Below the pieces are notes generated by a model. It saw only the letters and a program-made list of their open reading frames with translations. It did no database searches and was not told the origin of the DNA. A program made the position numbers and the translations under genes. Shown here in pieces: positions 8,001 to 53,800 of a DNA stretch of 64,000 bases (position 1 is the first letter of the stretch; each line of letters opens with the position of its first letter). This stretch comes from Octopus vulgaris (taxonomy: Eukaryota), in contig OX597814.1 in the NCBI GenBank assembly GCA_951406725.2, positions 69,564,001 through 69,628,000 of the forward strand, read 5' to 3'.

Positions 8001-11000
8001 GCTGATAAAACAGGTGATGGAAAGTATTAACTACTCTAGTCATAACTGGATCATTTCGTCGATTTAAGAATGCTACACTTTTTACTTGGATAACAGTCTG
8101 GCTACACAAAATACCCATGTTTTTTATGCTTATGGGACAGCCGTGCCAAAGAGCAGCACTGGGTGAAAAAGGTTTGGCCTGTTCGGGAAGAACTGAAACA
8201 TCATAAATCCTTCAATTGTGTCAAAAGAGAAAATAGTCTTTCCTCTTCTCCACATAAAACTGGGTTTAATGAAACAATTTGTGAAAGCTCTAGACAAGGA
8301 AGGTCATTGCTTCAAGTATATTGGTGAAGTATTTCCTGGTCTCAGCATTGAGAAGCTGAAAGCAGTTGTTTATGATAGACCTGATATATGAAAACTTATT
8401 CAGGATGAGAACTTCGTAAGCAGTTTGACTGTCCTAGAGTCAAACGTGTGGAATGCATTTGTAGCTGTTGTTAAAAACTTTTGGGGAAGTAAGAAGTCAG
8501 CAGACTTGTTGAACATATGCTGACATGCTATCATGCTCTCAGAGCTAACATGAGTATTAAAGTACACTTCCTTCACAGTCATCTAGACAGGTTTCCTGAA
8601 AACTGTGATGTAAGTGATGAACAAGGAGAGCATTTCCATCAGGACATCAGAGTGATGGAAGAAAGATATCAAGGACGTTGGGATATTAGAATGATGGCAG
8701 ACTACTGTTGGAGCATTAAAATGGACAGCCCAGAGACCAATCATTCACGCCAATCACAAAAACGGAAATTTATTCCATAGCTGTCAAGATCCTTGCTGGA
8801 ATGACTTATGATGATTTGAAGTTCTTTACTAAAATAGTATTTTCTGACAAATGTGATTTTCTTATATTGTGTTTTCAAATATTTTTTTCTTAAATAATGT
8901 CTTATATTTGTGTTTCTGTCATGAACATTAAGCATGTCCTAGACCTTGATCTATAGGGAAATTGCAAAAGTAGTCCTACACCAGCCCGTAGTACCCAATG
9001 ATGTGGGCACTCTGACCTGGGACAGATCCTGAATCCTTCATGTATCTTTTCCTCTATCTATCTATCTAACGATCTTGAATAATGTTAGAGACCATTTGAA
9101 ATGCACTTTGCTTTGATTTGCAATACCAACATTATCCAAACAATAGTCATAAAACAGTAAAAACTAGTCGATTTTTACAAAAATGGCTAAAAATGCCAAT
9201 GTCAAAAGCAAGTAAAGTAGACAGGATGGGTAAAAATAGTTGTGATTTTCAGAATCAGTATGCTCAAAAATGATATATTTCACCTAAAATATACCCAAGC
9301 AGAGGACAAAAGTTTTTGTTTTTTTTTTGTTTAGCTATCTCAATTACAATCAGGTCAAATTTGAGGAAACATTTCTTTAAAAAAATAGTACCTGTCACCT
9401 GTTTCAAACACTCAATTTCAACAACTACATAAACTATACTGACCAATTTTCACTCCCAAAGATGATGCAATGGTACAAAATGGGGATGCAATAATTGTAA
9501 TGTAATGGTTTCAAACAAGTAGAGAGAGAATAACAAGAAATCAGAAATTATTCATTTTGATCAAGTTACCAATTTTACCCTGCTTCCATATAGTAATTCC
9601 AAGTGTTTGAGAGAATGATAAAAAAAATATAGGAAAAAATAAAAAAGAAAAAAATGGTTTGATTTAAAAAACATCAAATCTATAAATCTGAAATGAGAAA
9701 GTTTGTTTGTTTGTCTGGTTTTGGCATTGGAATGGTTTAAAGAGCACTAGATCACGTCAGATTGACTCCAAAATTTACAGGGACATGTAAATTAGGTGAG
9801 GATGTGAGTGGGCTAGGTTAGAAATCCCTATCTTAAAAGGTGTGGTTACTAGGGCAAAAAATACACACTTTGACAAGTCTTCTCTCATTCTCTTATCTGT
9901 CTGTCTTCCTCTGTCTCTCTCTGTTTCCTCCCTTCCCTTCACTTTCTCTCTATAACAACATTTGACAGCTACTACTATCTTTCCCTCACCGCCTCCCTCC
10001 CCCCTCTCTCTCTCTGTACGTCTGTCTGTATTCATAGAGAGTTTTATTATCACCACCACCACACAATCATGAGAACAAATATTATGAATCCAATACTTAT
10101 TGGGTTAATTTATATATGTGTATGTGTGTGTCTGTATCTATATATAAAATGGGGTCTAAATGGGGCTGGAAGGGGATTCAAATTTACAAGAGGGGTAACT
10201 TGAGGGGGGAAATTGATTGGGAGACGTTTTATGGTGCTACAGTGGTTGCTTTGGTGTGAAAACTGGGATTTTATTGATTTTGGGGGACACTTGGTGGTCT
10301 AGATCGGACACCTTTTGCCCAATTTCAATCAAATTTTCAACATGGTAAGGTGGAAGCAGATTTGTAATTTAAACGCGGAAATCTAATTTTTTTATAAATG
10401 GCATAGAGATAGATAGAGAAAGATAAAGAGTAAGAGAAAGCGAGGGGAAAATCCGAAAGGAAGAGTAAGAGAGTGGGAAAATGAGAAAGGATAGAGAAAC
10501 AAAGAGGGAGAATGTGGCGATAAGAAAAGAAAGTAACAACCACAACCTCCCCCACATGTAGAGCGGGTCACCTTAAGCTAGTCTAAATATATATATGCAA
10601 TAATTCTAAAGCCAGTAAAGAATGCTTTTAGCTGTTGAAAGATGTAATTTTATAATTAAAACTAAATTCAAAATTTTAATTTTGGAACATAGTGGCTGTG
10701 TGGTAAGTAGCTTGTTTACCAACCACATGCTTCTGGGTTCAGTCCCACTGCGTGGCTCCTTGGGCAAGTGTCTTCTACTATAGCCTCGGGCCAACCAAAG
10801 CCTTGTGAGTGGATTTGGTAGACGGAAACTGAAAGAAGCCCGTCGTATATATGTATATATATATATATGTGTGTGTGTGTGTATATTTGTGTGTCTGTGT
10901 TTGTCCCCCTAGCATTGCTTGACAACTGATGCTGGTGTGTTTATATCCCCGTTACTTAGCGGTTCGGCAAAAGAGACCGATAGAATAAGTACTGGGCTTA

Positions 11001-14000
11001 CAAAGAATAAGTCTCGGATTCGAGTTGCTCGATTAAAGGCGGTGCTCCAGCATGGCCACAGTCAAATGACTGAAACAAGTAAAAGAGTAAAAGAGAGAGT
11101 TACTTGTTACATAAAATAAGACCATAAAATGCCACACTGAAATAAGTTTGGAAGTAGAAATGTGTGTATGTGTGCGTGTGTGCACGTGCATGCATGCATG
11201 TGTGTCCATGTGCCTTTAGTAGCAATCAGTCAAGTCAAAGTAATTGTTCATGAAAGAAGGAAATTGACCTTGAGACAATAACTTCTTTCTTTCAATCTCT
11301 TTATCTTTATATACATTCATACTTACACACATACACAAACTCACATACACTCACAAATACATATATACATTTTCAGGAGTGTTCTGTTGTTTCCTTTCTC
11401 TCTGTCATTGTCCCAATGTTTTTTAATTGAATAAATTGGTGCCTCTAAGGTGGCAAAATTTATGGTTATTTATCATAAAAGAGAGTCCATTATATTTTTT
11501 AAGAAGTCAAGATAGCTTTGTATACTGAAAGAGAGCCACTTCCTGCCTGATTGCTGGGAGGTGGTGGGGGCTTCTGTATTGAGTGCTACATACCCTTCAT
11601 TGCAAGGGCCTCCAATACCTAGCAGATGCCTGTAGTAATTGACCCCTATCCCTAATAAATCTGGCCTTGGTTTTCAGTGTCATGTAAATGACACTAGAGG
11701 AATGGTAGTCATGGCCATTGCCAGTGTCATGTAAATGGCACCTGTGCAATTTACTCTTGGAGTGGTTGGTATTAGGAAGGGCATTCAGCTGTAGAAACTA
11801 AGTCAAATCAGACTGGTACCTGGTACAGCTCTCTGGCCTATCAGTTCCAGTCAAACCGTTTTACGGATGCCAGCATGTAAAGTGGATGTTAAATGACAAT
11901 GATGATGATGATAATGATGATGTTTAATAAGAATCTGAAAACAGAATTATATGCTCAGTTGTCCATTATTCTAACACTAAGTAATTATTTCATGCTTGGA
12001 TATGGGAAAACAACATGAACCATATCAAGTATAATTTAATTATAAAAAAAGCAAAACAGTTACATAACATGAAATATCTTTTTCTTTCTTTCAACACTAA
12101 TTTTCGTCACATGAACATTTACCTGCTTCTTAAAATAGTCCTTCATAGCATTTTCATAACCTTCTTCAAGTCGAACAAATGCCATGTTAACATCACTGGT
12201 CCACCAGATCTGTGTTCCACACAAAGCAACTTGAGCTGGGAAGTCGAATATCCAACTCTCTCGAGGTTTTTCTTCATATTCAGCCACAGCAATAGTCATC
12301 TGAAATCGTACTGTATTTCTCATGTGATCTAACACGTTATTCAGCCAGATCTCAACCTAGAAAATTAAAGCTTTGTTTGTAGCACACTTTGTGACCACAT
12401 TATTTTAAAGGTTACTGATTCTGTCTCTGAAGCCCAACAACTTGAATCTTACCATACCTTTTTTTTTTTTTTTTTTTTTTGGGTTTTCCTCTGCCACCCA
12501 TACTTTCTTGAAGAATATCAATGAAAGTTCAATCAAAATAAAGTTTGGATAATGGCAGTTATAATTATCATGGCTGCATTTCAGAAGATAAAACCTCTGA
12601 ATTTGCTTATGCAGCATTCCTACAATAATACCCAATAGTCTCTTCTAAGTAAGCTTGTGCTTGTTTTAAGTTTAATTTTCCATGCTAACATAACTTAGAC
12701 AAGAATTAATTTGTACTTTTTCCACATGCCTATTTGCAGTTAGAAAATAATGATCAGGAACACAGTGAAACACAAGTGAGAGGATACTTATCTTTCAGCT
12801 GGCTAGCCAACATGTACGAAACTCTCTTTTTCTCATATACTAAATCATTATTGCAGTTTCCTTGTTTTTGATAACAATTTTAAGCAGTATTCTTCAACAT
12901 GACTAACTACCATGTTTGCAGCATTAGTATTCAATCTAAATTGCCAATTTGGTTTTTCCCAAGAATAGTGTACCCCACACTACATTATCCAATGCTGTCT
13001 GAAGGAGATTTGGCAGCTATGTAGTGGTACCCTTACTGGTGTTATTTAGTGTTATTTGTCTGAAATCTCTTGTCACACATCTTGTGATCTCTCAAGCAAC
13101 TCTCCATCCCATATGTCTCCTCCCATAGAATTTGCAAAGTGTGCTACTATTTCAGGTACATATAATCAAACTAACAACAACTTTCATATAGTTAGATCCC
13201 AATAATATTTGAAGCAAGAGAAAATTTATTGTCACTCTAACTGTGGATGAGACTGATTTCATTTAATACTCATGTTGTTCCCAACTCAGGTTCCCTCTCA
13301 TAAAACTATTACAAAGGAAACCCTTGGACAGTTCAAATTCTATTCTTTTAAACTGTTTAATTTCTTCACTTTATAAAATAAAGAGAAGAGAGAATGAATT
13401 GGAATATTGTCATTGAAAGCCAAACCAACACCTACAATGTGTATCAAACAAGCCTTGTCACCTGTACTAGGATAGAAAAATTTCCAGTTTCACTTGGACA
13501 GTTAAATTTGCAAGATCTTAGATAACCTAACAACACCATAGGACACACAGAAAAGGCCTGAAATTACAAATTCTCTAACCCACCCAACAAATATCAGTAT
13601 AAACTATATTAATGGCAGTGTCTTTACCTGTTTCAGACAAAGATATTGCAATAAGAACTGAAAAAATACATATTGCCTATCTATATTTTTATACATAAGT
13701 TTAACACCTGTTATCCATACAGATCTCTGGAGGGTTTGTAATAAAGGTTTGGTTCCTATTTGAATCATTTTACTCTACTTAAGTGGTGTCCTATAGTTTC
13801 CAGTCCAAGAAAAAGTAGGTTCAGTCCAGTTAATTTGCCTCTGACAACAAGAAGACAAAAGTTTTACAGTAATTTAATAATAATTTAACATATAATAAAT
13901 TTTTGCTATTATTTCCATAATACAAATTTGAAATTAAGTTATGAACTTCCAAATAATTTTGGAACTCCAATATAAGAAATTCTTACCTGTCCAGAGCAGT

Positions 14001-17000: not shown

Positions 17001-20000
17001 TTGTGTCACGCTGAATCACCCCGAGAACTATATTAAGGGTACACATGTCTGTGGAGTTCGCAGCCACTTACACTTTAATAAATGAGCTGCAGCGTCACTG
17101 GTACAAAGCTGTATCAGCCTTTGCCTTTCCCTTGGATAACATCGGTGGCATGCTGCTTCTCTACTTTCCGATAATATAGTTACATCATCCATAAAAGCCT
17201 TTAATGGTGTCTTTGTAACAGCTTTCTCACAGTTTGTAGATCTGAGTAGCATTTCCATGACTAGCACGAATAAGATGACTGATATCGTGCATCCGGCTGC
17301 AATACCTAGTTCAAGCCATTGCCACTCCGTTGTGAACTTTCTTGCTGTAAATCTCATCCTCAGGTTGTCGTAGTATGACATGAGCATTCGTTGAACATCT
17401 TTTGGAATCTAAAAGAAGTCCATCGCTGTTTTTATTATTGCGTGCGGAACAGATCCATAAGCATTGGCAAGATCTAGCCAAACAATATACAGGTTTTTCT
17501 TCATTTGTTTTGCACAGGTGATGGCTTCCCAGATGGCAAATGCGTGTTCTATGCACCCAGGGATTCCGAGGATTCCTGCTTTTTGGATTGCTTCATTAAC
17601 ATACCCATTATGCTGTACAAATCTTATGATTCGTCTAGCAATTATTCCAAACATGATTTTCCCGTCTGTATTTAGTAGTGAAATTGGTCTAAATTGACCT
17701 AGTGTTTTTGTCTCTTTTTCTTTAGGTAGATAGATACCTTCAGCTATACACCATCGCTCCGCTACATCTTTCTTCTTCCACATTTCTCTTATCAGTGCAA
17801 ACAGCTGCAAGCGTAATTTAGGGCAATATTTATATACCTTGTAGCTCACTCCATCGTTCCCTGGTGCACTTTTTGCTCTTGCTTTTCTTATGAACTCATC
17901 CATTTCTTTCCGTTTGATGTCACTCAAATCAAATGGTACACTTGGTTCAGGTGGTTTCTTCAGTCCGTGCATTTCTGGGAGTGCTTCATTTCTGTCAGAG
18001 TCGCTGTATGTCTCTTTCAGATGCTGTTTGAGCTCTTCTTTTGTGCAATCCAATTTTCCGCTTTTACTTTCAGTAAATAGATGTTTCACATATTGATAGG
18101 GTTTGTTCACAAAGCTACAATAGTTTTTTTCTCTCTCCTTTCTTCTGCTCCTCCTTCTTTGTTTTCTTAGCAGATCTCGATGCCTCTTTTTATCTCTTCA
18201 TACAGCTGCTTTAGCCCTTCTCTTTCCTCCTCCTTCGCATCCCTCCATCTGGTTCTGAGTTTTTTCTTCTCTTCTCGAATCTTTGCGATCCACCTTTCTC
18301 TCCTCGATAGTCCGCTCTTTGCCGTTGATTCTACCTTCCCTGTTGTTTCCAGTCCAAATCTTTTCTCTCCTGGTAGATTGTATTAGTCAGGTTTTCGAGC
18401 TTTTGTTCATCGTCACCTTTGAATTTGGTGGTCATTCTTGCTACCTTGTCAAATTTTTTATAACTTGCTGCATCATTTGCTTTCGGCCACTTAATATTTG
18501 TCCTCTTCACGCCTATCAGTCTTTTTTACTGTTCCAACTCAACCGTGGAATGAACCTCGCTATGGTTATTTTCCAGGGGGTTCTGGCCACACGTCTTATG
18601 GTTTATCAACCCGCATTGTTGAATTACTTTCTTCTGACACACCTTCCCTTGGTGGATTTTCAGCCTGATGTAACTAGCAAACACCTTTCCGCAGCAGCTG
18701 AACTCTTCATCTACCATTCCTATAACGTTTCCTTTCTCATTGTCCATTTCCGGTCCAAGTCCATTTCGTTTTTTTCCATCCCTATTTGATCCTTTATTCT
18801 CCCCCCGTGGTCAGGGATCATGGGGGCATGATTTCCCATGTTTTTCGTTGCAATTTTACCCCAGATCGGGCTGCAAGCCCATTTGATCCTTCGTTACGCT
18901 GTCGTACTATCAAGCGTCTCTCCACCTTGTCATCCCTTTTTCTGGATTGTCAGCAAGTCTTTCCCTGCAGTCAGTATCTGAGGAATTACAGCTGAGTTTC
19001 GTGGTCTGCTACCACAAGAGCTCCTTTATAGGATCCAGTTAGCTCAAGACATCATCAGGAGGAACCACGTCCAGTTTCAGCCCCTACTCCTCTACCGTTT
19101 TGACATGGCGCCCCCCCCCTTTCGGAGGTGTCTTCAGCTCTGGTGTTGGGTGCATGTCTTCTTTCTTCTTTCTTCTGTTCCCTGGCCTCTTCGATGTATC
19201 GTCAGCGAGTGTCAGCTGGTGACTGATTGACTTGTCAAATTTTTCCCTATAAATACCTGCCGCTAGGCTCCAGCAGGCAGCCCCAGCAAGTTGTCACATG
19301 ACACTGTCTCACCTTAACTGACTAGTGAAGGCACGTAGTTTTAGCCCGCGCATTTTCTAAATGACCGTCACCTGTCAGTCAGCGAAGCTGATTCAGTGTC
19401 AGCTTGTCTCGCCTAATGATGTTATTTCCCACCGGCATGTTATGACTTTCAAGCCATTTTCAGTCTTCCTGCTTCAGCCATATATAGAAGCTGGCTTTTT
19501 CGACCACCTCCTGTACTCTCCTTATTAGTTTTTGCAGCTCGGAGCTAGAAAAAACAAATCTTCTTTTGAAAAGCGTCGTCATTTTCCTTTCAATGAAGCC
19601 TCTAGCCCCCACTACCAGGTGATAATATTCAACATTCCATCCCCGTTCTCTGCATTCTTCAATTAGCTTTTCGTATATCTTCTTCTTTAGTTCCTCTGCA
19701 TTGCCGATGTTCTCTTCCCAAGGTACTGTCAGTTCTAGTAAAATTCCTATTCTTCGGTCTCTGTTCCATAGGACTAAATCCGGTCTTTTTGTTGTTTTTA
19801 TTAATGGAAATATTACTTGTCTTTCCAAGTCCATGGCCACCTCCCAGTATCCCTTCCATCTTTCGTCTATCTCGTATACTTTACTTGTAGGCCTGGTTTT
19901 ATATCCTTTTTCCTCCTTGTGGAAGTATACTTTCCTGCGCTTTTCTACTTTTGGGTACTCTCCCCTATTGTACCTCTCGATCTTCTCCTTAATTACTAAA

Positions 20001-22161
20001 TATATAATTTAATTAATGAATATAGATTAAAAGATAGTCATTTCATTATTTTGTTGTTATTGTTGTTGATATTGTTATTATTATTTTTATACTTGTTATA
20101 TGTGTACTAAAATTAAAAGTATTAAGTATTATTTTTTGGGGAAATAGTTTTAGTAACGTTAAATAATTTTGAATATGTAGTAAAAATTTTATTTTTCATA
20201 TACTATTTATTTATAATAATAATATGTACTTTATTTATTCCCTTAATGAGCGAAGTATTAGATTTAAATATGAATTAATTTACTTATATCATAAGTTTAA
20301 TTTGTTAGTTAGGATATATTTTGAATATTTATTAGATATATATTTGTTATAAGTGATAGTGCAGTTTATGGTTTGTGATGGTATTTTATATATTAGTCAA
20401 CATGACTTTGTATTATATATTTTGAATTGGATTTATTTTAGATGTTTATTTAATTAATAAATATAATTACATTATAGTTTTTAAATTAACTTAGGTATAT
20501 TAGACTATGGTTATAAAATTGATACCGATTGAATTAGTACTGAGTTTATTTAGAATGGGTCCTGGGGTTGATTTGTTCAAATAAAGGTGGGGCTCCAGCG
20601 TAACCATATTTATATGAATGAAACAAATAAATTTGTATAAGAGTATTAGATAATATCAAGTAAATTGTAGTTATATAAATTAATTTAACTATGTGGTAAT
20701 TTGAGTATATTTGTATTTTATCGTAGTTAATTTTAAATTTTAGGTTTCTAGTGAATGATATCCTACAGTTTAGTGATTTTATTCTCTCTTAGAGATTTCA
20801 TTCTCTTTTTGTTAAAGCTAAAATATATTTGTAGTTTCCATTGATAAAATGTATATTTCCATCTGTTTGTTCTATTTCTTTAAGCCACGTCTTCACGAGT
20901 AGATTTATAAACGCTAAGTAATACGTTTTTCATTTTGAAATGTTTTAGTTCATAATACACCTTTTGGAGAGATAAGTATACATTTTTATTTAAGAAATAA
21001 TAATGTACTCTTTATAAGTATTGATTGATAAATATGAATTTTTATTTTTTTTTATTTGTTAATGATATTTTAGATACGTACATTTATTTAATTATTATTT
21101 TATAATTGTTATATCTGTACGTAAATTGTAAAATAGTGACAAACTAAGTTTGTCACTGTGATTTAGATTGTTAAAATGTTTTAGTGTAACTAAAGGTTCT
21201 TATTATATTTCTAGTACTATTAAATTTAATAATAATAATAATAATAATAATAAGTACTTTTTTCGCAAATAATTTTTTAAACAATAAGTTATACATTTTC
21301 AGGTTTGGAATTTTTCATTTCTTATTTTTTATTTTATAAATATTTTTGGAATGATATCTATAATATTTATTTAAGTAATAATGGAGTAATATATTTCTTT
21401 ATTTATGTTTATCGATTGAAAAAATATGGATTTCTATTTGCTATATTTGTTGATTATAATTTAGATACGTTCTTTTATATGATTTTATAATTATTATATG
21501 TGAACTAAAATCTAAGAATATTAAGTGTGATTGTTTTGTAAAATAGTTTGGTAATTAAATATTAGAGTATAGCTAGGTTAAAGATATTTTATAGTTTATT
21601 AATGTTTTTATTAAAGCTAAATTATATCTTCACAGAGAAATACATTTTTCTATCTATTTACTCTATTTTTTACCTCAAACATTCAACATGATAAATGTAT
21701 TGTAGGCAACTGGTCCTAATGTTTTAAATTTCAAATTTAATTAATGGAGTTTCTTCTATAAGAAAAATCATGATTTTATTTCTTTAAGAAATATTGTTTT
21801 ATTTTATTTGTTTATTTATTATTGTTATTATTGTTGACCTGAGGAGTGACTATAATTTTAAATTGAATTGTTTTTCGATTAAATTTAAATTTAATTGTAA
21901 TTCGAATTAAAATTATAGCCATGAAACGTACGTAGTCTTTTTGCATATTATATATTGTTTATTCTTTTTGTACTTTTTGTGATCTAGTTATATGTTTTAA
22001 AATATATTTTATTTTTTATTTATGATTTGGTTTATGTCTATCATTGTTTGAATTGCATAATAGTGTTTTTTCTCTAATTCATATATATTATATATTTATA
22101 TTGTGAAATTTGATTTAATACTAAATTGAATTTTTCCCTGTAAGTTTGGAGTTATACACCC

Positions 22162-22195
<34 letters not shown>

Positions 22196-25100
22196 TGGGA
22201 CGAGGTGGTGAGGCACGACCTTCGAACTTTGGGTCTCACCAAGGAAATGACTGGAGACCGAGACCTGTGGAGGTGTGCTGTGCATGGGAGGACCCGGCAA
22301 GACTGGTGAGAAGTCAAAATCAAACCAAATCAACATCAGTGGAAATTGCAGCTGTGGTTAAGTGAACCATCCGATCGTTTGTCTGTTGCCAGCCTCGCCT
22401 GGCCCCCGTGCCGTTGGCACATAAAAGCACCACCCGCACATGTCCGTTGCCAGCCTCGCCTGGCCCTTGTGATGGTAGCACGTAAAAACACCATCCGTTC
22501 ATGTTCGTTGCCAGCCTCGCCTGGCCCTTGTGATGGTAGCACATAAAAACACCATCCGTTCATGTCCGTTGCCAGCCTCGCCCGGCCCCCGTGCCGTTGG
22601 CACGTAAAACCACCATCCGCTCGTGTCCGTTGCCAGCCTCGCCTGGCCCCCGTGCCATTGGCACGTAAAAGCACCATCCGCTCGTGTCCGTTGCCAGCCT
22701 CGCCTGGCCCCATGCCGGTAGCACGTAAAAGCACCATCTGTTCGTGTCCGTTGCCAGCCTCGCCTGGCCCCCGTGCCGGTGGCACGTAAAAGCACCGTCC
22801 GTTCATGGCCGTTTGCCAGCTCCGTCTGGCACCTGTGCAGGTGGCACGTAAAAAGCACCCACTACACTCACGGAGTGGTTGGCGTTAGGAAGGGCATCCA
22901 GCCGTAGAAACACTGCCAAATCTGACTGGGCCTGATGAAGCCTTCCGGCTTCACAGACCCCAGTTAAACCGTCCAACCCATGCTAGCATGGAAAACGGAC
23001 GCTAAATGATGATGATGATGATATATATATATATATATATATACATACATCATCATCATTCAATGTCCATTGTTCATGCTGGTATGGGTTGGATGGTTTG
23101 ACCAGAGTTGGTAAGCTGAGGAGCTGCATTAGACTCCAGCTGGATGCCTTCCTAACACTAAACACTCCACAGAATGTGCTGGGTGCTCTTATGAGGCACT
23201 GCATGGGTGCTTTTAGATGGCACTGCACAGGAGCTTTTATGTGGCACTGCATGGGTGCTTTTACATCTCACTGTATGGGCATGTTTACATGGCACAACAC
23301 AGGTGCTTTTACATGGTATGGCATAGTTGCTTTTACATAGGGCTGCCACAAATCTTAACACTCCTGCTGCAGAATACGGGTCTTGTTGAGTATGGCCAAG
23401 CACCAGGCATCTCAGTCCTTTGTCATCTCACCCGAAAGGTTCAGTGTCTTCAGTACTCCATCCTATGTCTTCTTGGGTTTCCCACTTCCACATGATTTAT
23501 CCACTTTGAGAGATCAGCACTTCCTTATGGAGCTGTCAGCATCTATCCACATCACATGACCAAGCCAGCGAGTCTTCTCTCTTGCACACAACAACCAATT
23601 CCTCATATGCCTAACTTCTCTCTCAGAACACTAGCACTCTGTCGAATATGTATGTACACTTACATTACACATCCAACAGAGTATACTAGCCTCATTCCTT
23701 TCTAACCTTCACATGTCCTCTGCATTCAGAACGCATGTCTCACTACCATGTAGAATTTCTGTCCATACACATGCCTCATACAATCTTCCTTTCATTTGGG
23801 GAGAAAAAACCTTTCATGGCCAACAGAGTTAATAGCTCTCTGAACTTCCTCCTTCCTATTCTCATTCTAGCTATCACACTCTCCGTGCATCCTCCCCTAC
23901 TACTCATTTGGTCCCCTAGGCAGTAGAAATTATCTACTACCTCTAATGAGCCACCAGGGCATTTGAGAGAATCAATTTCCTGGATACCTAAAGTTTTTAT
24001 GGATCCTGTGCATCTTCCACATATGAAAACTATCTTTTCTGATAACCTTCCTATTAATCCACTGCATCTCTTGTGTGTCCATAGCTTATACTGGGTTCAC
24101 CATACAGAGTTCGTGCCTACACCTTTCCTATAAATTGGGTCCTGTCAGTTTTCTTGTTTACTAGGACCTTAGTCTTTGCTAAGTTAACCTTAAAGACCTT
24201 AGATTCCATGTTTTGCTTTCACACCTTGAATTTCTCATCTAGTTCTGAAATGGAATCCATATAGTAGTTCCCAGGAGCTACAAGTCTTGACTTCCTCTGT
24301 TATGGCCTGGAGGACAATGATGAAAAGGAGGGGACTAAGGACTGAGCCTTGATGAACCCCTACTTGAACACCAAATTCTCTGCTGTACTCATGGTTAACT
24401 CTCACCTTACTAACAGCATCTTTATACCTGGCCTGTGCAACTTTCACCAGCTACTCATCTATCCCTAACCTACTCAAAGCCCATCATATCACACAGTAGA
24501 GCACTCAATCGAAGGTTTTTCCGAGATCAATGAGTGCCAGGTATAATGGCTTATTCTTTTTAAGTACTTCTCTTGCAGTTGTCTGACTATGAAAATAGTG
24601 TCAGTAGTGTTTCTTACCTGGACAAAGCCTAACTGTATTTTGTATAGCCTAATTCTGCTCCTAATTAACTGAGCTATAACTCTCCATAATTTTTATCCCC
24701 TGGTTCAGGAGTTTAATGTCTCTATAATTGCTTCTATCTAATGCATCACTCTTACACTTGTAGCAGCTAACAATTATGCTGCTATGTCAGTCAGTGGGTA
24801 TTACACCTTTCTGAATGATCTGATTAACTATGCTGGTGACCAGCCTGTATCCTACCTTACTGGATATTTTGAGCATCTCAGCAATGATTCCGAATGGACC
24901 AGGGGCTTTCCTGGTTTTCATGTTTTTAATTGCCTTATCTACCATACTGCTGTCCACTAGGATAACCAGTCCCTCTGTTCACATGAGGGAAACTCTCTTT
25001 ATCCCATTCATTCTCTACACTCAGCAGTCTTGCATAATACATTTTCCACATCACTACATGCAAGCATACCTTTATTCACCCACACACACTTCCCTCCTAC

Positions 25101-32200: not shown

Positions 32201-34186
32201 CCAAGTCAGTAGTGGGGGTGGGTGTGCTGAAAGTGTAACGGCTAGAGTAAGAATAGCCTGGGCAAAGTTTAGGGAGCTCTTACCTCTGTTGGTGACTAAA
32301 GGCCTCTCGCTCAGAGTAAAAGGCAGACTGTATGATGCATGTGTACGAACAGCCATGCTACATGGCAGTGAAACATGGGCTGTGACTGCTGAGGACATGC
32401 GTAAGCTCGCGAGAAATGAAGCTAGTATGCTCCGTTGGATGTGTAATGTCAGTGTTCATAGTCGACAGAGTGTAAGTACCTTGAGAGAAAAGTTGGACCT
32501 AAGAGGAATCAGATGTTGTGTGCAAGAGAGACGTTTGTGCTGGTATGGTCATGTGGTGAGAATGGATGAAGATAGGTGTGTGAAAAAGTGCCACACCCTG
32601 GCAGTTGAGGGGGCCTGTGGAAGAGGTAGACCCAGGAAAACCTGGGTCGAGGTGGTGAAGCACAACCTTCGAACTCTAGGTCTCACCAAGGAAATGACCA
32701 GAGACCGAGACCTATGGAAGTATGGTGTGCGTGAGAAGACCCGGCAAAACCAGTGAGAACAATCAAAATCAAATCATATATCAGAAAGCAGGGGTTAAGT
32801 GACCCATCCGTTCGTGTCCGCTGTCAGCCTCGTCTGGCACCCGTGCCGGTGATACGTAAAAGCACCATTCGCTCGTGGCCGTTTGCCAGCTCTGCCTGGC
32901 CCCGTGTTGGTGGCACGTAAAAGCACCATCCGTTCGTGTTCGTTGCCAGCCTCGCCTGGCCCCATGCCGGTGACACGTAAAAGCACCGTCCGTTCGTGAC
33001 CGTTTGCCAGCTCTGTCTGGCCCCATGTCGGTGGCACGTAAAAGCACCATCCGTTCGTGGCCGTTTGCCAGCTCTGTCTGGCCCCGTGTCAGTGGCACGT
33101 AAAAGCACCATCAGTTCGTGTCCGTTGCCAGCCTCGGCTGGCCCCCGTGCCGGTGACACATAAAAGCACCATCCGTTCATGGCCGTTTGCCAGCTCCATC
33201 TGGCCCCGTGTCGGTGGCACGTAAAAGCACGATCCGTTCGTGTCCGTTGCCAGCATCGCCTGGCCCCGTGCTGGTGACACGTAAGAGCACCACCCTGGCA
33301 GTTGAGGGGGCCTGTGGAAGAGGTAGACCCAGGAAAACGGTGGTGAAGCACAACCTTCGAACTCTAGGTCTCACCAAGTGACCAGAGACCGAGACCTATG
33401 GAAGTATGGTGTGCGTGAGAAGACCCGGCAAAACCAGTGGAACAATCAAAATCAAATCATATATCAGAAAGCAGGGGGTTAAGTGACCCATCCGTTCGTG
33501 TCCGCTGTCAGCCTCGTCTGGCACCCGTGCCGGTGATACGTAAAAGCACCATTCGCTCGTGGCCGTTTGCCAGCTCTGCCTGGCCCCGTGTTGGTGGCAC
33601 GTAAAAGCACCATCCGTTCGTGTTCGTTGCCAGCCTCGCCTGGCCCCATCTGACACATACACATTAAAGCATCCGTCCGTTCCCTATCCTTTCCATCCCA
33701 CCCCACCCATCACTTATACCTCTCCCCACATACTCCATATATCTACCCCTACCCTCGTGACTAGCGCACATACCCCACCTCTAGGCACGTAAAAGCACCA
33801 TCAGTTCGTGCTTTCCCCACTCTCACCTCCCCACCTCCCCTTGACACCATCAACACCACCATCTACAACACATCCACACAACACATCACATGCACACACA
33901 CTAACCAGGTATGGCCATTTGTCTCGATCTGTACCAAAAGCGACACATAACCAGCACCATCCGTTCGTGGTCGTTCGCCAGCTCTGTCTGGCACCTGTGC
34001 AGGTGGCACGTAAAAAACACCCACTACACTCGCGGAGTGGTTGGCGTTAGGAAGGGCATCCAGCCGTAGAAACACTGCCAGATCTGACTGGGCCTGACGA
34101 AGCCTTCCAGCTTCACAGACCCCAGTTGACCCGTCCAACCCATGCTAGCATGGAAAGCGGACGCTAAACGATGATGATGATGATTA

Positions 34187-34856: not shown

Positions 34857-37800
34857 ATAAATCAATAAATAATGTAGATTTTTCAGTTGCATGAACTAAA
34901 AGTCGGAGGGGAATGGGATAAACAGCCTGCACTAACTTGCTATAAGAGAAGGTAGTGATTTTACCTTGACCTTATTCTTAGTGCAACTTTTGAAGAATGC
35001 AGTTCGATTTTAACAGTTACATGTTTCAAAGCTATAATGGAAGTGACAAAGGAGAATATTTGGCATATTTTGCTTTATGAATTCAATAAAGGCAACAACA
35101 CAACGGAAAGTGCGAGAAATATTAATGCAGTATATAGGGATCAAACAATAAGTAGTGTAAGCTAGTGTCACTGGTGGTTCCAGAAATTCTGAGCTGGAAA
35201 CTACAGCCTAGAAACATCATCCTAAGATCTGAAGACAGCTCGACCATCATCCTAAAGCTTGGTGGAAGAAAAATCTGGAAAGCAGAGAAGCTTATCAAAC
35301 CATTCATCACACTCAGAGACATGCTTTCAGAAAGTGAACCAACACCTCCTTAGACATACATAAAAATTGTCACATATCCTACGCAGAGAATTAACTCTTG
35401 GTGTCATGTTCTCATAATGCCTCTTTCACTGCACTAACAGATACTATTGAGAAATTTCTCTATTAATATGTCAACAGAAGACAAAGAGTGGGTCATAAAA
35501 AAAACATTTTGTGTGACAATAAAGTGGCAATGAAACAAGTATAGGATATGAAAGGTGTGAGTGAACAAACCAAATGATAACAAAGGATCTACTGTGAGCA
35601 GCTTCACTAGGCTTAAGTCAGTGCTAGAAGAAAAACTACTGTATCTAGTTTCAACACAAAAGGTGTTCTTCCATCAGAATAATGCTTGGCTACATGACAT
35701 TCCAAAGGCTGGAGCAGTTTCAATGGGAGAAGATGCCCCATCCACCATATTGAATGGACATTTCCCCATCTGATTATCATTTATTCTGCAGTCTTCAAAA
35801 TCATTTGGACAGGAAAAATATGAATTCTGTAGACGAGATCAGAACAATACTGGAGGAGTATTTTTCATCACAGACAAGTGAAATTTGGAAGAGGGGCATT
35901 ATACGCTAGAAGAAGCAGTCAAAACGACCAAAACCACATTTAATAGCAATTTTCAAAGGGAATGAAAAATAAAAACTTTTACCTTGTTATTTTTTGCGGT
36001 TATACCTAGGTTTCAAATTTCTTTAGCAAATAAAATAATCTACAAGGCGAATTCTCATCAGTAACCGGCCTTAACAACTAACTTATAATTCAGAGACAAG
36101 TAACACGTGTCTCATCTTTATATGTTATAATTTTTCAAAATTCAGCATGCAAGTGCAGTTTCAGTCGGCAGTAGATGGATAATGCCGAGCTGATTCTTTG
36201 AAAACGCTAAAATCATATCCGTAAGCATTTTAGAAGAATCAGCTCAGCATTATCCATCTACTGCCAAATGAAACTGCACTTGCATGCTGAATTTTGAAAA
36301 ATTATAACATATAAAGATGAGACACATGTTATTTGTCTCTGAATTATAAGTTAGTTGTTAAGGCATGGTTACTGATGAGAATTCGCCTTGCAGATTATTT
36401 TATTTGCTAAAGAAACTTCTATCTAATTATACATATTCTCCTTGAGCATAAATCAGAGCCATACATCAAATTGAAGACTACATTTGTCTCCTATTACAAA
36501 TTTGGCTTCAAAGACAACAGAAAAATACTTATACATACAATCATTTTTCTAGTCATCAATATACCAAAACGACCAACATATTAATAGCAATTTTCAAATT
36601 AAAATTTTAACTAACATATCTTTGCAAGAAAAGATCCCCATTAACAATAAAGATATAACAAAGAAAATACACATATAAATTAAATCATTGCTTTATATAA
36701 TAGAAAGAAAATGTAGTGCAAAACACACAAGATCACATAGATAAAATATGAATCCCTATGCCATAAAACAAAAGTCTTTTGACTGCAAAGCACACATCTA
36801 TTTGTATTGAATTATAACATTAAAGTTATCACAGCTATATATTTATTGACACTTACAGACATACAAAAAATTACACATCCTATCCTTTTAGACACTGCAA
36901 ACTAATCATCTACAAATTGAAAAAAACAGACTCACAAATAATATAGGCACTAAACAGAGACCAAAACACGTATAAAACAAGAAGACAAAGTGATAATCAT
37001 TTCACCTCCTACATTCATGCACTAGGAAAACAACCAGTAAGTATACAGAGAACAACCACAAGACCATATAGGCTAACACTGAGGTACAGTCTAGATTGCT
37101 TCATTGTACTAAAATCTAATAAAAATAGTATTTTAATATAACTGGAAAAATACCTTTTGTTTTGTTAAGTCATTAAAATTATATAACTAGAATTAAAATT
37201 TTTGTTCCCAATATGTAGAGCTGCAATAATGTTATATTGTAGCAGGAAATTGAGCTGAATATCAAAAGCATCACAGCTTATTTCAGAAAGAAGCTTAATA
37301 AAATAGCTGCAAAATAGCTTCTAAAATTCTAGGTGAATTTGAAGTACAGAGACAACTCCATTCTCATTTCCATTCTCCAGCCAAATAGACAAATTGCTAT
37401 CATGAATTTAGTACAATACTTCTCCAGTTGTGACAGCATAGTCATAGAGCCATACATACCAGCTGTTCTGTCATAGACTACAGAGTTTGTCTCTCCCAGG
37501 GTGTATAAACTGTTGTTTGTATTTTTCATTCAAAGACCAACATAGAAAATACTATGTGCAGTAAATAAAGTTGCTGTTAACTGTTGTTCATGAGTGTTGT
37601 TCATCATTTATATGCAGCCAACAAGCCAACAATATTAACTTGCAATTTTCCAAATTCAAAATTATTCACACTAATCTTTTTTCATATTTTTCCTCTCTGC
37701 CAAGAAAAGATCCCCATTAACAATAATTAGATATAACAAAGAAAATACACATATAAATTAATAGTTGTTCAGATTGCTTTATAGGTAGATAGAAAGAAAA

Positions 37801-38967
37801 TTGTGGAGTGTCCAAGTAACACTTACTGCGAGTGGGTCATTTCCAGTAGATAAAATATCAAGAAGGTCACTGGATGAGACAAAATAAAATCGAGGGAAAG
37901 CTAAGCGTTTTGTCTCCAAATATTCTGCTAAAGCTTTTTCGCACTTCACCAGTTCTTTCTGTATTGATTCTAAGCGTTGATATAAATTTGGCTGATCTAT
38001 TGCTTGGATTACATTTTTGGTAACCTCAACTTCAGAAACCATTTGCTATAAAGATTCAGACAGAAATGAACAAAAAATAGTTAATTATGTATCTCTCTAT
38101 ATATAAATGCAGAAACTCTAAGACAAACACTGAAAAAAACATGTATATTGCATAATATTTATTTTGTGAAATAAACAGCCAGATTTCCACCAAACCACAC
38201 CCTGTCATTAAAAGAAGAAAGTGAACAAAGTGAAAATGGTAATCTTTCTCTCATCTCTCTTTCTCTCACCGAGTTTCTATCTTGAATAGTGGAAAAGAGG
38301 GGAATAGATAGTGAGAGACACAGAAGACACACAGACAGACATAGCTAGCTAGCTATCTGGTCATCCCATAAGCTCTGCTTGATTTTACCTTTTTTAAAAT
38401 TGAATGAAATTTAATAGTATTTTAGAATGTCTAATGGAATTAAAAATTATTTTTATGCATTTGTGTACATTTAATGTAATTAAATATTATTTTACAGAAT
38501 AATAGAATTAAAATTTCCTTGATTAAAACCCTTTCTAATATGGAAGTATCCAAAGAGCATTTAAGGCACATAATGCTTTATGAGTACAAAAAAGGAAACT
38601 CTGCAGCCGAAGTGACTCAAAACATACACTCTGTTTATGGGAAAGAATGCTTGAATGAAAGAACTTGCAGAAGATACTTTGCAAAATTCAGAAGTGGAGA
38701 TTTCAGCCTTGAAGATGAAGAGTGAACAGGACGTCAAGTTGAGTTTGATGATAAGCTCCTTGAGGCATTACTTGAAGAAAATCCTGCATTATCAGTTGAA
38801 AAATTGGCAATAAAGCTTAGTTCAAACCATACAACTGTTCATCGTCATTTTCAACAATTTGGAAAGGTTCCTAAACTTGGAAAATGGGTGTCTCATGAAT
38901 TGTCCGAAAGCAACAAACCACAACATCTCTCTCTCTCCAAAAACACACCACCCACAAAAAAAAAATC

Positions 38968-40241: not shown

Positions 40242-43048
40242 CCTCCGATGGATGTGTAATGTCAGTACTCATACTCGGCAGAGTGTAAGTACCTTGAGAG
40301 AAAAGCTGGACCTAAGAAGCATCAGTTGTGGTGTGCAAGAGGGACGTTTGCGCTGGTATGGTCATGTGGCGAGAATGGATGAAGATAGTTGTGTGAAAAA
40401 GTGCCACACCCTAGCGGTTGAGGGAACCTGCGGAAGAGGCAGACCCAGGAAAACCTGGGACGAGGTGGTGAAGCACGACCTTCGAACTTTAGGTCTCACT
40501 GAGGAAATGACTAGAGACCGAGACCTCTGGAAGTGTGCTGTGCGCGAGAAGACCTGGCAGGACAAGTGAGTCCATAACCCGTGGCCTTCTACATGGGATG
40601 GAGCCAGCCTACGTATGCATACCTTCCCTTCTTGGGACACAAAACTCTACTTGTGAAGACCTGTTGAGGCAAGTGAGGATCAGAATCGAAATCGATCAAT
40701 GGAAATTGCAGATGTGTTACCAGTGCCAGTGGCATGTCGAAACTCTACTTGTGAAGACCTGTTGAGGCAAGTGAGGATCAGAATCGAAATCGATCAATGG
40801 AAATTGCAGATGTGTTACCAGTGCCGGTGGCATGTAAGAGAACCTTCTGTTTCACGACCGTTGCCAGCGCCGCCCCGACTGGCCTCGTGCCGGTGGCATG
40901 TAAAAAGCACCATCCATTCGTGTCCGTTGCCAGCCTCGCCTGGCCCTCGTGCCGGTGGCACATAAAAAGCACCATCCGTTCGTGACGTTTGCCAGCTCTG
41001 TCTGGCACCTGTGCAGGTGGTACATAAAAAGCACCCACTACACTCACGGAGTGGTTGGCGTTAGGAAGGGCATCCAGCCGTAGAAACACTGCCAGATTTC
41101 ACTGGGCCTGATGAAGCCTTCTGGCTTCACAGACCCCAGTAGAACCGTCCAACCCATGCTAGCATGGAAAACGGACGCTAAACGATGATGATGATGATGA
41201 TGATGATATATCTTTATATATATAAAACTGAGAATGTGTGTCTGTCTGTCTGTCTATCTGTCTGTGTGTTTCCCTAAAACTTGAGAACTACACAACCAAT
41301 TTCATTCAAACTTTACAAATGCCTTACTTAGGGTCCATGTAGTTTCATGGGCAAAAAAAATGTTCAACTTCTTGCCTAGAGCGAGCCCATAGCAATATCA
41401 TATCTTCTCCACTATTTCATTATTACATGTTAAAAGTGAAACAAAAACATTTCTCTATTTTATGTCAGATACTTTCACTTTAACAATAAAAATAATAATA
41501 ACAATTGAATTATATGTAGTAAGTAATAATTAAAATCAAACTAAAGTATAATATAATCGTAACATAACAAAAGTAAAAATAGCAATTGGTATAAAATTGC
41601 ATCAATGATTTGAACTTGAATAAGTGGTTTCACATGAATGGGAATAAATTAAAATTAAAATTAGCGTGCAGAAATGGAATAGTCCAGATGGATAATAAAA
41701 AATTAAATTAAAGAAAAGACTATTGTCTATAAAGTATACAATGTAGAGAAAAAAGAAGATTTGAACACACGGAGAAAAGCACCTTTGAAAAGTGTCTTGG
41801 TGGGACTATGAAAGATATCTAATCAGAGGCAGTAAATTCGCCACAATAGAAGCAAGGTTCAAGTCAACGGAGCGTGCAAGGGAGTACTCAACTCGAACTT
41901 GCAAAGTGGAAATATTTTATTCTTACCTTTATATCTGGGACGTAGGACGTCCCGGAAAAAAATTGAAAATGCACCCCTCCCCACCAGAAGTAAAAGTAGG
42001 CTGGATTGTAGCCACACTTCTATACAAGAGGGAGGACAAGATACAATTGATCGAAATTACAAGAGACGGGCTAACAATTCCAGTCTGTTATATATATACT
42101 AGCGATATCAAGATATAACTTTGTATTTTGTATTTTATGTGTAGATGTATATATATATGTAAAGTATACTAGCCATCTCAATATGGCTAACCACTAGGGG
42201 TGGGTGTTACTGTAGCTTTTTAGCCCCAGGAGATCATCGTCTCCAGCTGGCTGTAGACACAATTTCTGTGCCCTTATGATATTTGCAAAGGGAGGTCATC
42301 CCCTCTCGTAAACCTAAGTGATATGCATGGACTGCAGTTTCGAGATTATTGCCTCTTGTCAACACACGGTAATCATGGGTTTTCGATGAGAAGAGACCTG
42401 TTTGCGAATATCTATTTATTGTTTTTCCCAGTAACCACTGTCACTGATTTCGAAAAACGGTCTAAAGCCAGCTGGAGACGATGATCTCCTGAGGCTAAAA
42501 AGCTACAGTAACACCCACCCCTAGTGGTTAGCCATATTGAGATGGCTAGTATACTTTACATTGTCAAGCGCTTACTGTTTACATCTCATTCAGAGATTTA
42601 TTATTGCTTTCAGACCGTTTTTCGAAATCAGTGACAGTGGTTACTGGGAAAAACAATAAATAGATATTCGCAAACAGGTCTCTCCTCATTGAAAACCCGT
42701 GATTACCGTGTGTTGACAAGAAACAATAATCTCGAAACTGCAGTCTATGCGTATCACTTAGGTTTACGAGAGGGGATGACCTCCCTTTGCAAATATCATA
42801 AGGGCACAGAAATTGTGTTTAAAGCCAGCTGGAGACGATGATCTCCTGGGGCTAAAAAGCTACAGTAACACCCACCCCTAGTGGTTAGCCATATTGAGAT
42901 GGCTAGTATACTTTACGTTGTCGAGCGCTTACTGTTTACATCACGTTCAGAGATTTATTATTGTATATATATAGATGTACATGTAATATATACACATATA
43001 TACATGCACTAGCACTATGACCCGGCAACGACAGGTCTTTAATGCTAG

Positions 43049-50882: not shown

Positions 50883-53800
50883 TAAACAGACAGACTTAAA
50901 AAGAAGGAAGTGGGCTGTGACAAAGTAGAGAAAACTACATTCGCTACAGACTGTACTACTCATACATATAAATGTGTGCATATGCACATATGCATGCACG
51001 CACAAACACACACACAGTTGAAGCACAATTTGATTCTTTTTCACCTTTTTGTACCCTTTTTAATTATAAACTACTACAGTTAGCCATCATTTTTGATGGT
51101 ATGGGGTCAGCTAGTGATAAAATAATCATTAATGTTTACATTCTAATGATTTTTTTTTCCTTTCTTTGCTGATTACTATACACCATAGGGGTTAAATCTG
51201 TAGTGGTTTTTATAACTTAAAAATGAATTTAGATTAGGCCCATATCAAGTCACCATACATTGTATCAATTCTAAAGGGGCTCTTCAGCAATGGAGATAGC
51301 AATGGAAGCAGTATCCATATCTCGGCACATATTCGCTGCATGCCCTAAGTAGACATAATACTTTACTTGATTTCATCACTTCTCACCTCTATTTGGCCTT
51401 AGGCTACATCTTCCAACTGCATATACTTATTTTCATACTGGTCATTCTGAGATCTGCTAAACTCCTAGTATTCAGCTCTCAATGTCATCTTCAAATTGGA
51501 AGTTTGTTAGTTGCTCACCACTGATGTTCACACCACCTCCCCAGTCAATGTCCTTTATGATCTAGACATGTGGCAAAGTGTTTTGGAGAGATGATATCTC
51601 CTTGATCGACACCCTTCTCAATTAGGACCTTTACTGGAGGTGATAGCAGAGCTTTATCAGTTGTGCATCTAGAGTTCACATCTCGGACCAGTTTGATGGA
51701 TTGTGTCTTGACACTTTGCATTACCAGAAATTTCAACACTGCATTCATCTTGATGCCATCGAAGGCCTTTCCATAATTAATAAAAGTAATTCGTTTATTT
51801 GTTCTATGAGCTGTGCAAGAATATGCTCTCTCATATAATGCTCAACCACAGCAGATCCTCAGGGAACACTTTATTGTATCAAGTTACAGATAGCTATCAA
51901 CTTCATTACCTTACAGTTGTTTCTGCTATAATCTAAATATCCAAATGAAAATTTACACAAGATGAGTGATCAAAGGTCTAAATTATCTGCAAGTAGGGAA
52001 ATATGGAATGAGGCCCTTATTAGAAGTACCTATAAAAAAAAAAGTATTACCAACTCAAGACCCCAAAATCACTCTAAGTATTCATACAATGCAAGCACAG
52101 ATAAATCAACACAAAAATCTTCCACATGTACACACATAAAGACCTCTTCTAGCAACCTGAATATTTCTAAAACTCAAAACTCCAAGACAAAAGCTCACTA
52201 GCTTCCAGTTACTACAAACATTTATGACTAGAATGACCTGTCATTTATTGATGTAAATTATATTTTATTACCAGATGTATATAATGTAAATAACAATTTA
52301 AATTTTTTTTAAATATGATAAATTAATTTAACAATAATAACTCATAATATCGATAAAATGCCAATATTGAGAATAATTTTTTTTTAAAATCGAACTGTTG
52401 TCCAGGTTTTTTTTCCTTCTTTTTTTTAATCCAAAGAACTTCATCATAAACAATGTTTTTAACTTTTTAATCTTCTGTGTAATAATAAAAATTATTAGGA
52501 TCTCCCAATCTCAAAAAGGATACATATAGTTGTCCATGAGAAAATACTTCATTTTTAAGATTGAAACCAACTTTTTTAAATGTTTGGCCTTGTGATTTAT
52601 TTATTGTTATAGCAAAGGATAGTCTAACTGGAAATTGTAATCTTGTAAACCTCACTGGTTCCTCTGCAGTTAATTTAATCCTTGGTAATAATACTAATCC
52701 ATTTTTGTACTTTCCATTTAGTATTTTTGCTTCAGTTACATTATTTGTAAGGGATTCCACTATTAACCTTGTTCTATTGCATAACTTTGGAGTTTGTAAA
52801 TTTCTCAAAAGAATAATTGGAGCGCCTTTCTTCAAATTCAATTCATATTGTGGAAATCCTGATATTTCTAATGAATTTAAGAATTCAATGGGAAAATCTA
52901 CTGCTTCATTTGTGTCTATTACTTGATCTGTAGAATTGTATGTTCTTAATCTATGTTCTATTTTGTTAAGTAATTGCATATTAATAGTATCAACATCCTC
53001 ATTTTTAGCAATTAAAATTATTCTTTCTGATACTCATTCTGTATTAGTGTAATTAACAGCAATGTCCTCAAAAATAAATATTTCTAAATCAATTTCATTC
53101 TCAACTCTATTTCCCACTGGTAATAATATCATGTGATTGCCATCACTTGGGATCCTATTTTCTCCTACTTCTAATAGTTTATTTGCAAAGTCCTGTAAGT
53201 CATTATTTCTTAAGATATGCACTCTCATATTAATTCTTAAAGACAATTTGTGAAATAATGACCATAAATTGGATACCTTGATTGATGCATCTATTTCATC
53301 AGCTTTTGAACCTGTTGTATTTGTCTAAAATCACCAGCTAGTAAAACAGGGATACCACCAAATGGTAAATTATTGCTTTTAATTTTTTTTAATGTTTTAT
53401 CAACAGCCTCTAATATCTTTTTGTGCGACATTGCAACTTCATCCCATATTAATACATTACAATTTTCTGATGTTAATCAAATTCTACTATTTCTTCTAAT
53501 TGATGTTGTAAATTCAATCATCTATTGATGATGAAAATGGTAATTTAAATATTGAATGTACTGTTTTTCTATTGTCTATTAAAGTTGCTGCTATTCCTGA
53601 AGAAGCAGCTGCTATACTTATATCATCGTTCATTTTATGGTTTGCAAGTAAAAGATTTATCAAGAATGTTTTTCCAGTTCCATCTAGAGTAACTAAAAAG
53701 TATAATCTTTGTTCATTTCCATTAATTATTGAGTCTTTGATTGTAGTATAAATAAGTCTTTGTTCTTCATTCAACAATAGCTCATACACTTCTACAAAGT

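Follow-up and report, generated by a model that had tools for sequence, protein, structure and literature searches.

Within an intron of a dynein heavy-chain gene encoded on the minus strand, the window (the whole 64-kb stretch of Octopus vulgaris DNA that was analysed) holds a complete type-I hammerhead motif at 21836-21937 on the plus strand, with a stem II of 77 nt. The motif is real and belongs to a many-copy repeat family, so that it is not a one-off; its arm length lies beyond the published range as compared, the hammerhead kind itself being already known. We consider it rather probable that this is a dimer-type hammerhead near the 3' end of a many-copy, non-coding repeat, likely derived from a Penelope-like element (PLE), in which loop II grew freely.

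A complete hammerhead with a 77-nt stem II

A 2.1-kb block with ~20% GC, T- and G-rich on the plus strand, carries the motif close to its right end and consists of the following features.

20005..21835, plus strand: host-element body, AT-rich, T- and G-skewed, without an open frame (left edge approximate; multi-copy state tested and shown from 21350 onward only)
21836..21838, plus strand: helix I 5' strand, GAC, 3 bp, pairing with GUC at 21935-37
21839..21845, plus strand: CUGAGGA catalytic core (from sequence)
21846..21922, plus strand: stem II, AT-rich, 77 nt, with 24 of 26 pairs, a 5-nt bulge and an apical hairpin (from the pairing table)
21878..21895, no strand assigned: perfect palindrome of 18 nt at the tip of stem II (from the pairing table)
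21923..21934, plus strand: GAAA core (21923-25 plus A), helix III octamer (21926-33) and GUA triplet
21935..21937, plus strand: helix I 3' strand, GUC (from the pairing table)
21938..22162, plus strand: repeat 3' part, ~225 nt beyond the predicted cut (from contig depth and folding)
22163..22195, no strand assigned: (TTA)n tract at the right end of the block, followed by an RTE-like fragment

Both cores (CUGAGGA and GAAA), a GUA site and three helices are present, helix I being open; the helix III octamer, ACGUACGU at 21926-33, is self-complementary, and cleavage is predicted after A21934. Stem II is paired at 14 of its first 15 positions and at 24 of 26 along the same diagonal, the imperfections being a G-U closing pair, one A-C mismatch and one A-A mismatch. 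Folded alone, it reaches -21.3 kcal/mol, versus -6.9 +/- 2.3 for 1,000 dinucleotide shuffles, none of which was as good (z -6.3). A hammerhead descriptor run over the window gave two matches, at 21836-21937 (plus strand) and 35997-36067 (minus strand); in 300 block shuffles it gave none with a palindromic helix III and one when that requirement was lifted. An earlier note on this DNA had proposed a hammerhead with a long stem II, and the complete core, the 77-nt arm with its z score and the 0/300 shuffles bear this out; the 14/15 bp followed by a palindromic end that it described are both confirmed by the pairing table.

Rfam reported no hammerhead among its 58 matches in the window, nor in the single match of a local scan. 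Loci matching the core words only were found in metagenomes (95) and viruses (11), none of them with helix I plus a paired long stem II, and a pattern specific to the repeat family had no matches in the metagenomes scanned. Two by-products of these scans concern descriptor design. A CRISPR repeat with CTGAAGA and GAAAC mimics the hammerhead core across one spacer (metagenome loci L014, L020, L027 and ~18 others), and such repeats are a source of false positives for long-stem-II descriptors. An unrelated short-armed hammerhead core, with a 4-bp stem II, occurs in one viral and one metagenome contig (L010, 501-581; L075, 3001-3081).

Four of the five exons tested match dynein Pfam families on the minus strand, so the motif is antisense to dynein, as the earlier note had claimed, and, as a lone copy, it probably does not act on the dynein pre-mRNA.

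The motif belongs to a many-copy repeat family

Family membership was assessed with contigs matching 21350-22230 at 80% identity or more, in four public runs carrying four organism labels and coming from at most three studies. All four runs gave such contigs (5,906, 3,532, 2,721 and 1,028), most of them 90-99% alike. The whole motif including the long arm was spanned from core to core by 5 of the 32 pieces listed, with 4-15 gap letters; the 77-nt arm is therefore not private to this copy. None of the 15 joints listed (of 16) shortens stem II alone, and in run X1 the summed depth over stem II was 50-72 thousand, against 51 and 53 thousand in the flanking bins. A short-armed version of the repeat would be hard to see, since the contig comparison skips 21792-21837.

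The summed contig depth, which is no copy number, was 6-17 times higher at 22010-22039 and 22100-22129 than at 21890-21919. It climbs toward the right end, the shape expected for many 5'-truncated copies on the plus strand; 21800-21829 and 22160-22230 have little or no cover because the method skips repeats. A 13-bp AT-rich hairpin (~22105-22134) lies in the bin with the greatest depth and is a candidate protein-binding or RT-start stem-loop.

Variation among copies was surveyed on 40 listed rows of 137, which are unphased. In stem II, these rows contain A21855C (52-80% of depth), A21909T (35-56%), A21912G (30-46%) and 1-nt deletions in an A run. A21912G lies one place from the predicted partner of 21855, and the two changes are compatible with a compensatory change shifted by the alignment; A21909T would break a stem II pair unless matched by a change outside the rows listed. 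None of the 40 rows falls in 21839-21854 or 21913-21942, which is weak evidence for a conserved core, given that only about one variant per 20 nt is listed. An ADAR footprint was also considered and dropped, as G>A (20-23 places) and C>T (11-13 places) track the G:C content.

A likely affiliation with Penelope-like elements

According to the earlier note, the motif follows a decayed GIY-YIG C-terminus at a Penelope-like 3' end. A short stretch at about 21690-21735, ~100 nt upstream of the motif, presumably resembles a GIY-YIG end; the decayed C-terminus itself is not supported, with no profile, phmmer or word match and a frame that is closed in other copies. Pfam returned no families in 12 frames (six of the 20.0-22.2 kb block and six of the 36-kb region), phmmer no matches for one minus-strand frame of the AT-rich block, and protein word searches no matches to a PLE remnant; these searches are weak for frameshifted remnants and had no PLE-specific profile among them. 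In runs X1 and X2, 98-100% of depth shows stop codons at 21637 and 21676 in the GIY-YIG-like frame of other copies. No synonymous excess was found in any frame (6-10 of 28 variants in each of the six), using the 28 of the 40 listed rows that lie at 21391-21740. Given the stops and the lack of a synonymous excess, the amplified family looks non-coding at this block. A minus-strand ORF, suggested by composition and motifs, was dropped because it had no match and because depth rises toward the right end.

Within 20.0-22.2 kb, neither a tandem nor an inverted pLTR arrangement was found, nor a second pLTR. Against a Naiad/Hydra sequence file, five short motifs of the window gave one chance match only, although the line breaks of that file may mask matches. 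In the Octopus vulgaris genome, PLEs account for 6.83%, in 190 families (supplement row of PMC13282606); passages of PMC11167929 describe PLE genomic ends located shortly beyond the site of cleavage, and AT-rich targets. At the repeat, depth rises to the 3' end and (TTA)n comes next. Four features lead us to infer PLE ancestry: the type of ribozyme, a distance of ~225 nt between it and the 3' end, its AT-rich surroundings, and the inverted copies at 36 kb. The repeat is probably a Penelope-like retroelement derivative without coding capacity.

Comparison with published hammerheads

The PLE hammerheads of Cervera and De la Pena 2014 (PMC4209133; reviewed in PMC6765202) are represented by 56 motifs, in whose rows the longest stem II region, counted by eye, is 23 nt. 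The statement in the earlier note that PLE hammerheads usually have a short stem II is correct for these rows, and the stem II described here is about three times the longest of them (77 versus at most 23 nt). It also falls outside the helix II descriptor given there (3-7 bp with a loop of 3-10 nt). In other respects the motif is like the minimal PLE hammerheads of that compilation, being type I with a CUGANGA/GAAA core, a short helix I and a palindromic helix III. The U-rich and AU-rich flanks and the short helix I match the PLE consensus in Fig. S3 of PMC4209133, which also includes G-U closing pairs of helix II, and the second Saccoglossus kowalevskii motif of that figure has an identical layout: its palindrome is centred on GUAC, and A9 is not followed by an additional base. 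A further difference from published PLE hammerheads is that the searches found no PLE ORF at our copy. No natural PLE hammerhead with such a stem II was found in the literature compared, Lunse et al. 2016 and Arkhipova et al. 2017 being outside the comparison.

Craig et al. 2021 (PMC8557442) list eight Naiad cases of an "HHR_half_core", whose halves are separated by 35-50 nt; two of the eight come from cephalopods. As in our motif, their separated core halves escape descriptors, and the sense strand of cephalopod Naiads is T/G-rich like that of the AT-rich block. In contrast, the Naiad_Ovul consensus has GAAAC before CUGAUGA and a 3' end that is dissimilar by eye, and the passages of PMC8557442 compared do not describe a long stem II for the half-core cases. 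Non-LTR retrozymes share with the repeat a non-coding, many-copy and low-GC character and type-I hammerheads; a pLTR origin is proposed for them, and dispersed monomers occur (parts of PMC7229834 and bioRxiv 10.64898/2026.07.22.740005). However, they are made of short tandem units with a hammerhead each, whereas here one motif is present in the whole block, which measures at most 2.1 kb, and no tandem units each with a hammerhead were found at this locus. As to insertion size, the discontinuous Clec2 hammerhead (passages of PMC6155905) is similar in having a very large insertion in one arm; unlike our motif, it is type III, carries the insertion in helix I and lies in a host 3' UTR.

Hammerhead surveys relied on descriptors that admit at most ~24 nt in stem II, so that long-armed families may be undercounted, as may PLE clades scored as being without hammerheads.

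Monomer and dimer folds

In the monomer, helix III is reduced to 2 bp with a GUAC loop and the active fold lies 4.9 kcal/mol above the minimum free energy (MFE); in context, the pairing probability is ~0 for helix I, helix III and four basal stem II positions. For two copies, the computed energy of the double-hammerhead fold is -50.2 kcal/mol, versus -45.4 for a pair of relaxed monomers and -35.6 when both monomers are active; the corresponding values for the 36-kb motif are -24.2 versus -18.4. On these energies, the motif is predicted to cleave only as a dimer, in which two copies pair via the palindromic helix III. The lowest two-copy fold is a duplex with swapped stems II (-57.0), below the active dimer, and it may act as a trap. 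The apical palindrome was considered as a dimerisation aid and dropped, because a swapped 77-nt duplex would be incompatible with an 8-bp helix III at the same junctions. The published view, as far as the sources compared go, is that PLE hammerheads cleave as dimers and slowly, with poor cleavage in vitro; for frog retrozymes, eight of nine predicted dimers are described as not cleaving.

The following sequence of events would account for these observations. In the tandem transcript of a parent element, two motifs would form a double hammerhead, cut after GUA and process the RNA. A helix I of 3 bp leaves no contact between loop I and loop II to be kept, and loop II would thus be free to grow, probably by a fold-back duplication of AT-rich sequence. 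Amplification of the family would then have carried the long arm along, as a passenger that is tolerated.

The second hammerhead at 36 kb

The other descriptor match lies within an inverted duplication.

35997..36067, minus strand: second hammerhead with a 6-bp helix I, a 40-nt stem II region, ACCUAGGU as helix III and a GUA site (from the descriptor)
36015..36418, no strand assigned: inverted duplication with 92% identity, in which the second hammerhead lies together with a partial copy

The partial copy is on the plus strand, where its core starts at 36372 and breaks off at the end of stem II; in the upper stem, a U-G pair of one copy is C-G in the other. An inverted-pair arrangement of this kind is described for PLEs in the parts of the literature compared.

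Helix III is self-complementary in both hammerheads of the window and its sequence differs between them. The earlier note had ascribed one architecture to the two: the palindromic helix III design, the GUA site and the differing sequences stand, and an elongated stem II at 36 kb is weak, since that arm has 40 nt, a z of -0.8 and 204 of 1,000 shuffles folding as well. For the same reason, of its proposal that a long-stem-II variant is used by at least two element families, the part that stands is an arm common to the copies of one family.

The 36-kb hammerhead is sense to dynein, whose intron might be cut there provided that a partner is present. Short direct repeats surround the motif (36564-36712 with 37618-37801; 35920-35957 with 36565-36598).

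Alternative explanations

The long stem II could instead be a selected functional part, with the cleaved 3' fragment templating a far more abundant short repeat, which we regard as unlikely. Variants of this explanation would make the arm a docking site for a protein, or a switch that holds the ribozyme off until a tandem partner or a chaperone is present. The 6- to 17-fold higher depth downstream of the predicted cut would agree with templating; yet the step lies at ~21980-22010 rather than 21935, and contig depth summed in this way does not measure copy number. That the arm is kept across copies under four organism labels, and that A21855C, the majority variant, is listed along with a G variant at 21912, one place off the predicted partner, argue for selection on the stem, whereas A21909T would break a pair unless it is matched outside the rows listed. 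At 36 kb, the U-G to C-G difference points in the same direction as the former and the z of -0.8 in that of the latter. Moreover, Anolis PLE insertion in vitro did not need HHR cleavage, according to the passages of PMC11167929 compared. In its widest form, the explanation would be that whole families of long-armed dimer hammerheads have been missed by published descriptors, that a selected stem II gates cleavage or docks a retroelement protein, and that the cleaved 3' piece seeds a short repeat roughly ten times as abundant as the ribozyme, and we hold this to be doubtful. What PLE hammerheads do is disputed, and the many diverged copies would allow this to be tested with covariation and with the position of copy ends relative to the cut site; should the arm be a passenger, the finding would do no more than widen the known size range.

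A host repeat that is not PLE-derived, namely a retrozyme- or SINE-like dispersed monomer or an AT-rich DNA element with a captured hammerhead, would be in line with the lack of coding evidence in all frames searched and with the single chance match of the five motifs to the Naiad/Hydra file (with line breaks that can hide matches). We judge it improbable, as the palindromic helix III and the flanks fit the PLE type, a tandem unit is absent and helix I is non-canonical; in addition, retrozymes are themselves reported as pLTR derivatives in the parts of the literature compared. Very improbable, in our assessment, is a dead motif, whether a short-armed PLE hammerhead inactivated by a palindromic insertion and passively amplified, or core words that flank an AT-rich hairpin by chance. 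In DNA of 20% GC, palindromes of A and T alone arise easily, but the chance version is excluded by the 0/300 shuffles. Inactivation would be suggested by the active monomer lying 4.9 kcal/mol above the MFE and by the swapped duplex as the two-copy minimum; engineered hammerheads, however, tolerate a long stem II, and no variant is listed in 21839-21854 or 21913-21942, a weak argument at about one listed row per 20 nt. We thus retain the dimer-type hammerhead with a freely grown loop II as the preferred reading.

Other repeats in the window

The AT-rich block abuts remnants of non-LTR retroelements at 17028-20008 on the minus strand, which include a reverse transcriptase at 17409-18197 (minus strand; Pfam RVT_1, E 1.7e-6) and an ORF at 19460-20008 (minus strand) that we take to resemble the end of a restriction-like endonuclease. 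Within the block, the 123 nt at 20521-20643 are 72% like 10973-11095 and are probably a decayed SINE. RTE-like elements that terminate in (ATG)n carry tandem units of 61 nt within their 3' parts, at 22362-22894, 32797-33769 and 40903-41029. At 42159-42916, a 308-nt inverted repeat with 97% complementarity and arms 142 nt apart is MITE-like, and a decayed Helitron at 52467-56744 (minus strand) gave matches to Pfam Pif1 2B and Helitron_like_N.
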